From NCBI RefSeq assembly GCF_050320075.1, contig NZ_CP190018.1: DNA of 64,000 bases; one strand, given 5' to 3'. The notes under the pieces are model-generated. The model saw only the letters and a list, made by a program, of their open reading frames with translations, was not told the DNA's origin and searched no databases. The stretch comes from Escherichia coli. GTDB lineage: Bacteria; Pseudomonadota; Gammaproteobacteria; Enterobacterales; Enterobacteriaceae. Shown here one piece after another: positions 50,220-58,459 of the stretch. Numbering within the stretch: the first letter of the stretch is position 1; the number at the start of each line of letters is the position of its first letter. The position numbers and the translations under genes are program-made.

Positions 50220-51272
50220 ATGACAGATATTGCGCAGTTGCTTGGCAAAGACGCCGACAACCTTTTACAGCACCGTTGTATGACTATTCCTTCTGACCAG
50301 CTTTATCTCCCCGGGCATGACTACGTAGACCGCGTGATGATTGACAATAATCGCCCGCCAGCGGTGTTACGTAATATGCAGACGTTGTACAACACTGGGC
50401 GTCTGGCTGGCACAGGATATCTTTCTATTCTGCCGGTTGACCAGGGCGTTGAGCACTCTGCCGGAGCTTCATTTGCTGCTAACCCGCTCTACTTTGACCC
50501 GAAAAACATTGTTGAACTGGCGATCGAAGCGGGCTGTAACTGTGTGGCGTCAACTTACGGCGTGCTGGCATCGGTATCGCGGCGTTACGCGCATCGCATT
50601 CCATTCCTCGTCAAACTTAATCACAACGAGACGCTAAGTTACCCGAATACCTACGATCAAACGCTGTATGCAAGCGTGGAGCAGGCCTTCAACATGGGCG
50701 CGGTGGCGGTTGGTGCGACTATCTATTTTGGTTCGGAAGAGTCACGTCGCCAGATTGAAGAAATTTCTGCGGCTTTTGAACGTGCGCACGAGCTGGGCAT
50801 GGTGACAGTGCTGTGGGCCTATTTGCGTAACTCCGCCTTTAAGAAAGATGGCGTTGATTACCATGTTTCCGCCGACCTGACCGGTCAGGCAAACCATCTG
50901 GCGGCGACCATAGGTGCAGATATCGTTAAACAAAAAATGGCGGAAAATAACGGCGGCTATAAAGCGATTAATTACGGTTATACCGACGATCGCGTGTACA
51001 GCAAGTTGACCAGCGAAAACCCGATTGATCTGGTGCGTTATCAGTTAGCTAACTGCTATATGGGCCGCGCAGGGTTGATAAACTCCGGCGGTGCTGCAGG
51101 CGGTGAAACTGACCTCAGCGATGCAGTGCGTACTGCGGTTATCAACAAACGCGCTGGCGGAATGGGGCTGATTCTTGGACGTAAGGCGTTCAAGAAATCG
51201 ATGGCTGACGGCGTGAAACTGATTAACGCCGTGCAGGACGTTTATCTCGATAGCAAAATTACTATCGCCTGA
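50220..51272 (+). CDS. fbaB: Class I fructose-bisphosphate aldolase
   Basis: ORF 50148..51272. Start at [10 protein letters not shown] gives 350 aa. Confidence 0.9.
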
Positions 51273-51279
51273 TACGCCT

Positions 51280-51350
51280 TATACGAACAGCACTACCCCG
51301 TATGACGGAAAAGGCGTTTACGTCGCATCCGGCATAAAAACACGCGCACT
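51280..51350. repeat. REP-like element downstream of fbaB
   Basis: gcctgatacgccttatacg ... cgtcgcatccggcat resembles REP palindromes. Confidence 0.5.
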
Positions 51351-51354
51351 TTGC

Positions 51355-51387
51355 TACGGCTTCCCTATCGGGAGGCCGTTTTTTTGT
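51355..51387 (+). terminator. Intrinsic terminator (fbaB)
   Basis: Hairpin ggcttccc-tatc-gggaggcc followed by gttttttt. Confidence 0.6.
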
Positions 51388-51389
51388 GC

Positions 51390-52095
51390 ACAGAAAACCC
51401 CCAGCTAGGCTGGGGGTTCCGGAAAGCTTTCAGCTTTGAGCCAGTTATTCAAACCCCTTTTGATTTGTTAAAACACCTTGCGGTCTGGCAACTGCAAGTG
51501 TCAAACAAGAAATCAAAAGGGGGTCCCAATGGGGGACGAAAAGAGCTTAGCGCACACCCGCTGGAACTGTAAATATCACATAGTTTTTGCGCCGAAATAC
51601 CGAAGACTGGCGTTTTACGGAGAGAAGCGTAGGGCGATAGGCAGTATTTTGAGAAAGCTGTGTGAGTGGAAAAGCGTACGGATTCTGGAAGCAGAGTGCC
51701 GCGCAGATCATATCCATATGCTTGTGGAAATCCCACCCAAAATGAGCGTATCCGGCTTTATGGGATATCTGAAAGGGAAAAGCAGTCTGATGCTTTACGA
51801 GCAGTTTGGGGATTTGAAATTCAAATACAGAAACAGGGAGTTCTGGTGCCGAGGGTACTATGTCGATACGGTGGGTAAGAACACGGCGAAGATACAGGAC
51901 TACATAAAGCACCAGCTTGAAGAGGATAAAATGGGGGAGCAGTTATCGATTCCATATCCGGGCAGCCCGTTTACGGGCCGTAAGTAACGAAGTTGAATGC
52001 AAATGTCAGATCGTATGCGCCTGTTAGGGCGCGGCTGGTAACAGAGCCTTACAGGCGCATTTGAAAAACCTCCGGCTATGCCGGAGGATATTTAT
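51390..52095 (+). mobile_element. IS200-family insertion sequence (boundaries approximate)
   Basis: Contains an IS200 TnpA gene. Left-end perfect hairpin aacccccagc-tag-gctgggggtt (51396-51418) and subterminal hairpins 52015-52060 and 52069-52090. About 0.7 kb, as expected for IS200. Confidence 0.75.
51529..51987 (+). CDS. tnpA: IS200 transposase TnpA (HUH/Y1 family)
   Basis: MGDEKSLAHTRWNCKYHIVFAPKYRR ... HIHMLVEIPPK (HuH motif), 152 aa. Near-identical to recalled Salmonella/E. coli IS200 TnpA. Confidence 0.9.
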   Translation: MGDEKSLAHTRWNCKYHIVFAPKYRRLAFYGEKRRAIGSILRKLCEWKSVRILEAECRADHIHMLVEIPPKMSVSGFMGYLKGKSSLMLYEQFGDLKFKYRNREFWCRGYYVDTVGKNTAKIQDYIKHQLEEDKMGEQLSIPYPGSPFTGRK

Positions 52096-52156
52096 TGCCT
52101 GTCATTCTGATTAATTTTCGAATTGTCGTTTTTGTGATCGTTATCTCGACATTTAA

Positions 52157-54356
<2,200 letters not shown>

Positions 54357-57679: not shown

Positions 57680-58459
57680 ATGACGATGAATTCATTCGAG
57701 CGAAGGAATAAGATCATCCAATTAGTGAATGAACAGGGAACCGTGCTTGTTCAGGATCTGGCGGGAGTATTTGCTGCCTCGGAAGCGACAATCCGTGCCG
57801 ATTTGCGCTTTCTCGAACAAAAAGGCGTGGTTACGCGCTTTCATGGCGGTGCGGCGAAAATAATGTCCGGTAATAGTGAAACCGAGACCCAGGAAGTTGG
57901 GTTTAAAGAGCGATTTCAGCTCGCCAGCGCGCCAAAAAACAGAATAGCGCAGGCGGCAGTCAAAATGATCCACGAAGGGATGACCGTTATTCTCGACAGC
58001 GGAAGTACGACAATGCTTATCGCCGAAGGATTAATGACCGCCAAAAATATCACGGTGATTACCAACAGTCTCCCGGCAGCATTTGCCCTTTCCGAAAATA
58101 AAGACATTACTCTGGTCGTCTGTGGTGGGACCGTCCGCCATAAAACACGCTCGATGCATGGTTCCATTGCCGAGCGTTCATTGCAGGATATTAATGCCGA
58201 TTTAATGTTTGTCGGTGCTGATGGTATTGATGCGGTTAATGGTATTACGACCTTTAATGAAGGTTATTCGATTAGCGGGGCGATGGTTACAGCCGCAAAT
58301 AAAGTGATTGCCGTTCTCGATTCATCGAAATTTAATCGTCGCGGTTTTAATCAGGTACTGCCAATCGAAAAAATTGACATTATTATTACCGATGATGCCG
58401 TGTCAGAGGTGGATAAACTGGCATTGCAGAAGACACGGGTGAAATTAATTACGGTGTAG
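57680..58459 (+). CDS. gatR: DeoR-family repressor of the gat operon, apparently intact
   Basis: 259 aa uninterrupted ORF with DeoR HTH and sugar-binding domain. In K-12, as I recall, this gene is split by an IS element. Confidence 0.8.
   Translation: MTMNSFERRNKIIQLVNEQGTVLVQDLAGVFAASEATIRADLRFLEQKGVVTRFHGGAAKIMSGNSETETQEVGFKERFQLASAPKNRIAQAAVKMIHEGMTVILDSGSTTMLIAEGLMTAKNITVITNSLPAAFALSENKDITLVVCGGTVRHKTRSMHGSIAERSLQDINADLMFVGADGIDAVNGITTFNEGYSISGAMVTAANKVIAVLDSSKFNRRGFNQVLPIEKIDIIITDDAVSEVDKLALQKTRVKLITV

Follow-up and report, generated by a model that had tools for sequence, protein, structure and literature searches.

Among the autonomous insertion sequences of the IS200/IS605 family, IS200 is the smallest. 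The mechanistic paradigms of this family are IS608 of Helicobacter pylori and ISDra2, both of which encode a Y1 HUH transposase, carry subterminal hairpins and no inverted repeats, insert 3' of a target that lies on the left side only, leave that target unduplicated, and have their active strand on the lagging-strand template. The same orientation was put forward as a rule for the whole IS200/IS605 family, in which the active (top) strand lies on the lagging-strand template (PMC5027513). In the IS200 of Salmonella, which is 707 bp long and has tnpA as its single gene, Ellis et al. (2015) described a hairpin at the left end (nt 12-34) as a bidirectional rho-independent terminator that shields tnpA from impinging transcription, and in the same work a stem-loop in the 5'UTR was assigned the role of sequestering the Shine-Dalgarno sequence, while STnc490/art200 was described as antisense to tnpA (PMC4513863). 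IS1541 of Yersinia is a close relative of IS200 that is likewise present in many copies, and one copy was reported between the pheL attenuator and pheA (PMC3082878), a position that would fit insertion after a terminator hairpin. An association of IS200 with terminators is therefore not new in itself, as an enrichment was already reported in a preprint of 2025-26, where it was read as persistence (10.1101/2025.07.22.666184); in the literature that we searched, this preprint and the anecdotal pheL-pheA case of IS1541 were the only explicit earlier mentions of terminator targeting by IS200 or IS1541. [quoted passage not shown]

The DNA analysed here is a 64,000-nt stretch of an Escherichia coli genome (contig NZ_CP190018.1), hereafter the window. 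Between fbaB and gatY it carries an intact copy of an IS200-group element, an isoform about 96% identical at the nucleotide level to IS200C, the RefSeq name of an E. coli element found for example in CFT073. The features of the region are collected in Table 1. The window copy has the same 711-bp length, ends, hairpins and gene layout as IS200C, and IS200C occupies the identical fbaB-gatY site in CFT073, TST3, ETEC4068 and EC-107, but 29-30 of 711 nt differ between the two (identity 95.8-95.9%). The window copy is not a new element, as RefSeq annotates the identical form as "IS200/IS605 family transposase" (WP_001550737.1). Copies that are 100% identical over a 706-nt stretch were found at different loci in many E. 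coli strains, which is indirect evidence of transposition. Near-identical copies run into the thousands, and of 5,426 complete genomes of the species 2,063 contain 80% or more of an IS200; a second copy is absent from the 64-kb window.

Table 1. Features of the fbaB-gatY region and its surroundings (positions are those of the window)
Feature	Position	Strand	Evidence
fbaB (class I fructose-bisphosphate aldolase)	50220..51272	+	Pfam DeoC, E=1.5e-72; RefSeq annotation of the 100% identical YZLc1-3 region
fbaB intrinsic terminator, target of IS200	51356..51385	+	10-bp GC-rich stem 51356-51379, T7 run 51379-51385
IS200-group insertion sequence, 711 bp	51386..52096	+	Empty-site comparison at two independent loci; 711-bp length the same in five lineages
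Left-end perfect hairpin, 10-bp stem and 3-nt loop (AACCCCCAGC-TAG-GCTGGGGGTT)	51396..51418	+	Inverted repeats, folding
IS200 left-end / tnpA 5'UTR RNA structure	51396..51519	+	Rfam STnc490 (RF01405), full length 1-124
Long 5'UTR stem-loop	51454..51522	+	Inverted repeat I1, 16 nt, 94% complementary
tnpA, intact, 152-aa Y1 (HUH) transposase	51529..51987	+	Pfam Y1_Tnp
Right-end long imperfect hairpin, downstream of the tnpA stop	52015..52060	+	Inverted repeat I2
Right-end terminal hairpin (CCTCCGGC-TAT-GCCGGAGG) with the 9-nt tail ATATTTATT that ends the element	52069..52096	+	Terminator scan, inverted repeats, folds
Native gat regulatory region, 114 bp	52097..52210	+	Same sequence as in IS-free strains
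gatY, first gene of gatYZABCD	52211..53065	+	Pfam F_bP_aldolase; annotation
gatR, intact ORF	57680..58459		ORF list

The exact boundaries and target of this copy, which are a by-product of the analysis, were obtained by comparing occupied with empty sites at two unrelated loci. At fbaB-gatY the empty site reads ...GGGAGGCCGTTTTTTT^GCCTGTCATTC... in K-12, in IHE3034 and in SW070910, the closest IS-free strain, and the alignments with SW070910 and K-12 put the insertion point at the final T of the intrinsic terminator of fbaB (...GGCCGTTTTTTT^GCCTGTC). In the window the left junction is formed by ...GCCGTTTTTTT followed by GTGCACAGAAAACCCCC and the right junction by ...GCCGGAGGATATTTATT followed by GCCTGTCATTC, and precise removal of the element would restore GTTTTTTTGCCTGTC. 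IHE3034 has a T8 run where CFT073 has T7, the element and one further T. With T's closing the left flank and TT closing the element, the boundaries can slide by up to 2 nt, and the frames 51385-52095 and 51384-52094 fit equally well. At the second locus, fdhF-yjcO, the empty site of K-12 is GGAGGCTGTTTTTTT^ATCCATTCG (in short, GGCTGTTTTTTT^ATCC) and the occupied site of EC2257 is T7-GTGCACAG...ATATTTATT-ATCCATTCG, a comparison that assigns the G at the junction to the element; a start at TGCACAG with TTG as flank fails, as the empty fdhF-yjcO site is without that G. Zero bases are duplicated at either locus, and GTGCACAG and ATATTTATT, with which the element begins and ends, do not form terminal inverted repeats. 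Alignment with IS-free strains was the check suggested by the first-pass annotation, which had drawn the element at 51390-52095: its right end holds to within 1 nt, whereas its left end lay 4-6 nt too far in. That annotation was correct in placing an IS200-family element between the fbaB stop and the gatY ATG, ahead of the gat promoter, and in giving it strong hairpins at its ends (the right one at 52069-52087), as borne out by the Pfam and Rfam matches, the hairpins themselves and the many identical copies.

The element lies in the same orientation as fbaB and gatY. GC skew on the + strand of the window is positive in 14 of 16 4-kb bins, with one bin at zero and one negative, and the locus corresponds to position 2.17 Mb on the K-12 map, where gat is on the minus strand. 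Taken together, the skew and the map position put the tnpA-sense strand on the lagging-strand template, as the family rule has it.

The tnpA ORF is of full length and free of frameshifts, and its product matches the Pfam profile Y1_Tnp ("Transposase IS200 like") with E=7.9e-37 over 120 of 121 profile positions. TnpA could be aligned to the solved IS200/IS608 transposases 2EC2, 2F4F, 2A6M and 2XM3, with E=2.9e-23 for 2EC2 and 2.6e-19 for 2A6M, the TnpA of IS608. The HUH motif DHIHM aligns to DHIHL of 2EC2, and the catalytic tyrosine lies in RGYYVDTVG, which aligns to RSYFVSTSG of the same structure. Compared with the TnpA of IS200C from CFT073, 147 of 152 residues are identical (97%), leaving five amino-acid changes. 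The remaining ORFs listed inside the element all overlap tnpA, and there is no separate tnpB, for which 711 bp leaves no room. The features of the IS200 group are thus found together in this copy: a Y1/HUH TnpA with its catalytic residues, tnpA as the only gene, a size near 0.7 kb, hairpins close to both ends with no inverted repeats, insertion without duplication beside a target confined to the left side, an active strand on the lagging template and the left-end RNA architecture. In outline the element works as IS608 and ISDra2 do. IS608, however, has tnpB and recognises the bare tetranucleotide TTAC by base pairing, whereas the window element is without tnpB and follows a hairpin and T-run, suggesting a structured target.

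All hairpins of the element fold far better than shuffled controls. The left-end hairpin (-18.7 kcal/mol, with no shuffle folding as well) corresponds to the nt 12-34 terminator of the Salmonella element (PMC4513863); judged by the sequence alone, its T-tail is poor on the + strand (TTCCGGAA) and better on the - strand. The STnc490 match, by which the STnc490/art200 region is predicted here over its full length, scores 143.9 bits (E=1.6e-30) against a gathering score of 56. Since this match lies on the tnpA-sense strand and the RNA was described as antisense (PMC4513863), it marks the left end of the element and not which strand is expressed. An idea that art200 might end at the left-end hairpin was dropped. 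The 5'UTR stem-loop, also shared with Salmonella IS200, folds with -43.8 kcal/mol (z=-4.8), and its 3' arm (AAGAAATCAAAAGGGG) covers the Shine-Dalgarno region directly before the tnpA ATG. On the right, the region 52005-52097 folds with -44.7 kcal/mol (z=-5.9), and the terminal hairpin was found by the terminator scan to be terminator-like on both strands. At 711 bp the window element is a few bases longer than that of Salmonella, whose very low activity and multiple copies per genome may apply here as well.

The terminator of fbaB was found by the same kind of scan and folds with -18.8 kcal/mol as RNA (z=-4.1) and -9.6 kcal/mol as DNA. It is also present in the IS-free SW070910, K-12 and IHE3034, and it is unchanged in the window, since IS200 sits exactly at the end of its T-run. 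Downstream of the element, a consensus scan of 51200-52300 returned a sole sigma-70-like site, TCGACA-18-CATTAT at 52146-52175, which is native sequence and which is overlapped by a better alternative -10, TATATT, at 52173-52178; we regard this -35/-10 assignment as a candidate gat promoter. A CRP-like half-palindrome, TGTGA-N6-TCTCG at 52134-52149, is a candidate CRP site, and the inverted repeats at 52115-52131 and 52182-52200, which flank the promoter, may be GatR operators; the literature search gave no usable published gatY transcription start or GatR operator. Indirect support for the promoter assignment comes from a mouse-gut isolate of K-12, PG20180058, in which an IS1 with the 9-bp duplication TAATTTCAT lies immediately 5' of TATATT. 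From the end of IS200 it is about 75 nt downstream to this IS1 and about 88 nt to the predicted start of gat transcription. The operon continues with gatZABCD, followed by the intact gatR.

Two claims of the first-pass annotation concern the effect on gat, namely that the insertion may alter the architecture of the gat promoter and that the left-end hairpin would insulate gat from upstream read-through. The first is unsupported, because the complete native gat upstream region of 114 bp, as judged by comparison with IS-free strains, remains to the right of the element. The second is plausible in so far as the hairpin is a terminator in the literature (PMC4513863), but such insulation would be redundant, since the terminator of fbaB itself and two further hairpins of the element are present. 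The consensus scan returned no outward-facing, hybrid or junction promoter in the right end of the element, and neither disruption or replacement of the promoter or operators nor supply of an outward promoter was found.

The fbaB-gatY site is occupied by IS200 in 19 of 5,426 complete E. coli genomes, which fall into five flank backgrounds and carry two variants of the element. These are the clade of the window, with eight genomes including YZLc1-3 (100% identical over 1.8 kb); ETEC4068 and ETEC4075; TST3 and TBE6; CFT073, in four assemblies; and EC-107, HCP4S3_I4 and HCP6S3_I1. The element of the window and that of ETEC4068 differ at 29 of 711 positions while their flanks are 98.8-99.4% identical, and conversely the IS200C elements of ETEC4068, CFT073 and EC-107 are 0-1 nt apart in spite of flank differences of 2-3% or more. 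CFT073 carries the element, yet its close relatives Nissle 1917, ABU 83972 and ATCC 25922 are empty, with flanks 99.8% identical to those of CFT073, which points to recurrent independent insertions. From the discordance between elements and flanks, and from the empty relatives of CFT073, at least two independent insertions are deduced, and the comparison suggests that the same nucleotide was probably entered as many as five times, although gene conversion between copies of the element could mimic independent insertions. Because IS200 has landed there repeatedly, this nucleotide is ill suited as a phylogenetic marker and offers a natural case in which to test how targets are chosen.

The same kind of junction was found elsewhere. 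Three unrelated E. coli loci, namely fbaB-gatY, fdhF-yjcO and a site downstream of an afaD-linked gene on plasmid pLKSZ01, share a hairpin and T-run that lead directly into GTGCACAG; their GC-rich hairpins differ, and the T-run always ends in TT before GTGCACAG. We then scanned one genome per species for the core of the left-end hairpin, CCCCAGCTAGGCTGGGG, and used the matches listed, which form an arbitrary sample and came from Vibrio, Mailhella/Desulfovibrio, Bacillota and Peptococcaceae MAGs, Oxalobacter, Brenneria, Edwardsiella, Pluralibacter, Dickeya and others. By a strict test, which required a hairpin without bulge plus T, ending within 10 nt of the element, 75 of the 92 unique left flanks among the matches listed were positive, as against 12 of 1,748 random positions from the same loci. 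A fold-based test (dG of -8 kcal/mol or lower over the final 45 nt, a last paired base no more than 9 nt away, and at least 5 T among the final 8) was passed by 83 of these 92 flanks and by 5 of 872 control positions, on account of which IS200 appears to target terminators. The mean folding energy of the left flanks among the matches listed was -19.7 kcal/mol, versus -8.9 kcal/mol at random positions. In 89 of 92 flanks among the same matches, the distance from the last paired base to the insertion point was 0-6 nt, and in every case the tnpA-sense strand carried the hairpin and T-run, 5' of the left end, while the right flanks were unconstrained, with the same right end standing before unrelated flanks in 23 elements. 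At several loci the element occurs in head-to-tail tandem copies, the second of which starts exactly after the ...GGAGGATATTTATT of the first, which shows that the right end, with its hairpin and 9-nt T-rich tail, can itself be a target.

The reading that we favour, at a probability of roughly 0.87, is that the window holds an intact IS200 passenger at the fbaB terminator, which landed there by a preference for terminators and is neutral for its neighbours. The element would have arrived by TnpA-mediated single-strand "peel and paste" transposition, entering the lagging-strand template immediately 3' of the T-run that closes the fbaB terminator. IS200-type elements would land by preference at a GC-rich hairpin with a T-rich tail, a structure that looks like the right end of the element itself, with its hairpin followed by ATATTTATT. 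The insertion added 711 bp, duplicated nothing and left both the fbaB terminator and the gat promoter/operator region intact, and the hairpins of the element would seal it against transcription on either side. With the element sealed and the flanks intact, the most likely effect on the expression of fbaB and gat is none or a very small one. The insertion would be a "safe-haven" passenger, at a site that IS200 has repeatedly entered in different lineages of E. coli. Neutrality for gat expression is what the sequence leads one to expect, and the gat operon (gatYZABCD, together with a gatR that is intact) would be expected to work as it does in strains without the element; even so, 711 bp of new DNA may touch activator contacts, DNA bending, H-NS binding or residual read-through.

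As to how the site is chosen, IS200-type transposases would recognise a terminator-like hairpin and T-tail in single-stranded DNA as a lookalike of their own right end, and at the present locus TnpA may have recognised the structure of the terminator directly. Stated for the group as a whole, we lean, by a modest amount, towards IS200-group elements being structure-specific integrators whose landing pad is terminator DNA, with a GC hairpin and a T-tail of 6-7 nt on the lagging template, that mimics the right end. If true, this would explain the near-harmlessness of IS200, its presence behind terminators across Proteobacteria, Bacillota and Desulfovibrionaceae, and the independent entry of two IS200 variants into the fbaB terminator up to five times. 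It would also amount to a testable rule, by which the element enters where the T-tract of a co-directional intrinsic terminator has its 3' end, and for which we found no defined counterpart in the literature searched; nor did that search return the nucleotide-precise junction, the mimicry of the right end or the evidence for a recurrent hotspot.

It could instead be argued that IS200 has no real preference for terminators, that it inserts at short T-rich motifs anywhere, and that harmless insertions behind terminators are the ones that survive. Intergenic positions after a terminator are the least harmful ones, the classical hisD984::IS200 lies inside a gene (cited in PMC4513863), and persistence is also how the preprint interprets the association (10.1101/2025.07.22.666184). 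Selection, however, would fix neither a point within a few nucleotides of the foot of the hairpin, as seen in 89 of the 92 flanks among the matches listed, nor the constant orientation of hairpin and T-run relative to tnpA; the same nucleotide has been entered independently, and the tandem junctions use the right end of one element as the target of the next. We therefore think it unlikely that survival accounts for the pattern as a whole, though the association could in part reflect the survival of harmless insertions. Less probable again is a single ancient insertion at fbaB-gatY that was inherited or recombined, was precisely excised in most strains, and had its copies homogenised by gene conversion. 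Such a history has in its favour the identical insertion point and 711-bp length in all five backgrounds, as well as the precise excision known for the IS200/IS605 family (PMC5027513), but it has to accommodate the rarity of occupied sites, the empty sites in near-identical relatives of CFT073, a divergence between elements and flanks that is discordant in both directions, and the fact that the insertion of CFT073 follows T7 of a T8 run and that of the window a T7 run. Widespread precise loss combined with gene conversion is much less likely than independent insertions, and of the readings considered here we hold it to be the most improbable.

A regulatory role, in which the hairpins insulate gat from fbaB read-through or the insertion changes the output of the gat promoter, deserves consideration, as no more than 114 bp separate the element from the gatY ATG, the hairpin at its left end has been documented as a terminator (PMC4513863), the one at its right end looks like a terminator on either strand, and insertion sequences in the gatY region alter the gat phenotype of gut-evolved K-12 (PMC3945185; IS1 in PG20180058). 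Against this stands the strong fbaB terminator, which adjoins upstream in occupied and empty sites alike, so that there is little read-through to insulate against, and all native sequence from the terminator to gatY is kept, with no outward or hybrid promoter in the scan. Moreover, the IS1 that changes the phenotype sits inside the -35/-10 spacer, well downstream of IS200. We consider a regulatory role quite unlikely, and return to the passenger at the fbaB terminator as the better description. As a common, annotated mobile element in a harmless position, the locus is of little importance in itself, and the terminator targeting and the hotspot are the only observations that might repay further work.

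Two minor observations concern the left flank. A megablast search with the left junction gave matches on plasmids and at fdhF-yjcO that, unexpectedly, ran on for about 30 nt into the flank, and this gave rise to the idea that the element carries the upstream hairpin with it; this was rejected, as the hairpins differ in sequence and are present in the empty sites. A weak Rfam match to Phe_leader at 51333-51385 (24.9 bits against a gathering score of 55, E=0.49) was likewise set aside, and is the fbaB terminator hairpin matching the terminator part of that model.

We compared the IS200 copy in the window (51386-52096), which lies between fbaB and gatY at the end of the T-run of the fbaB terminator, with those at the same site in E. 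coli CFT073, TST3, EC-107 and ETEC4068. One identical fbaB terminator nucleotide was found to hold IS200 in five flank backgrounds, and two IS variants were found at that nucleotide. In Nissle 1917, ABU 83972 and ATCC 25922, strains close to CFT073, the fbaB-gatY site is empty. The fbaB terminator nucleotide is thus a recurrent IS200 insertion hotspot. The 3' region of fbaB itself varies, as K-12 carries, downstream of the fbaB stop and ahead of the terminator, about 78 bp of additional sequence resembling REP/BIME, which is missing in the window (51316-51320) and in the closest IS-free strain, SW070910. EC-107 also differs in this region, its left flank being only 83% identical.

A similar setting was found outside E. 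coli. Left flanks were taken from window 51356-51386 and from comparison loci L004, L005, L006, L007 and L010-L129, and among the matches listed 83 of the 92 unique flanks had a locus-specific GC hairpin followed by a T-run up to the left end of the IS, compared with 5 of 872 control positions chosen randomly in the same loci. Among these matches, a GC hairpin plus T-run precedes IS200-type elements almost always, across many bacterial groups. In Yersinia, the close IS200 relative IS1541 was reported to lie between the pheL attenuator and pheA (PMC3082878), a position that would fit insertion past the terminator hairpin of the attenuator.

The right end of IS200, a hairpin plus ATATTTATT, is arranged like the hairpin and T-run of the left flanks. 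In head-to-tail IS200 tandems the second copy starts exactly past the ...GGAGGATATTTATT of the first, which could reflect a right end serving as insertion target, or else a tandem dimer. In other, mostly Bacillota-like, relatives (L095-L103, L029, L030, L090) the hairpin core known from the left end, CCCCAGCTAGGCTGGGGG, is found at the right end, followed by a 9-nt tail, AT(G/A)(C/T)TTATT, and then by unrelated flanks; therefore one hairpin sequence forms a left or a right end, depending on the element. In Dickeya undicola (L089, ~2133, minus strand) an extended inverted repeat surrounds the left-end hairpin, with GTCTATAGAAAAC before it and GTTTTCTATAGAC after it; an A-run follows, and there is no IS body. 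The structure may represent either a solo remnant of the left end or a derivative resembling a MITE.

The Rfam STnc490 model matches window 51396-51519 on the tnpA-sense (+) strand, while the STnc490/art200 RNA was reported to be antisense to the tnpA 5'UTR (PMC4513863). The Rfam seed and the RNA thus appear to conflict in strand.

Coordinates of IS200 tandem junctions and gat-associated features
Feature	Location	Remarks
Tandem IS200 junctions	L115 349; L116 2406, 3116; L118 1333, 2043	minus-strand coordinates
IS1A	L130 943-1710	corresponds to window ~52164-52172; mouse-gut E. coli O16:H48 PG20180058
gatR	window 57680-58459	intact 259-aa ORF

In PG20180058 the predicted gatY promoter contains an IS1A directly 5' of the candidate -10 hexamer TATATT; the insertion shows a 9-bp duplication, TAATTTCAT. 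IS insertions in the gat regulatory region that give a gat-negative phenotype were described in gut-evolved K-12 (PMC3945185), and this IS1A fits that class. The gatR gene is interrupted by IS3E in K-12; judging from its intact gatR, the window strain should have a repressible and inducible gat operon, unlike K-12.
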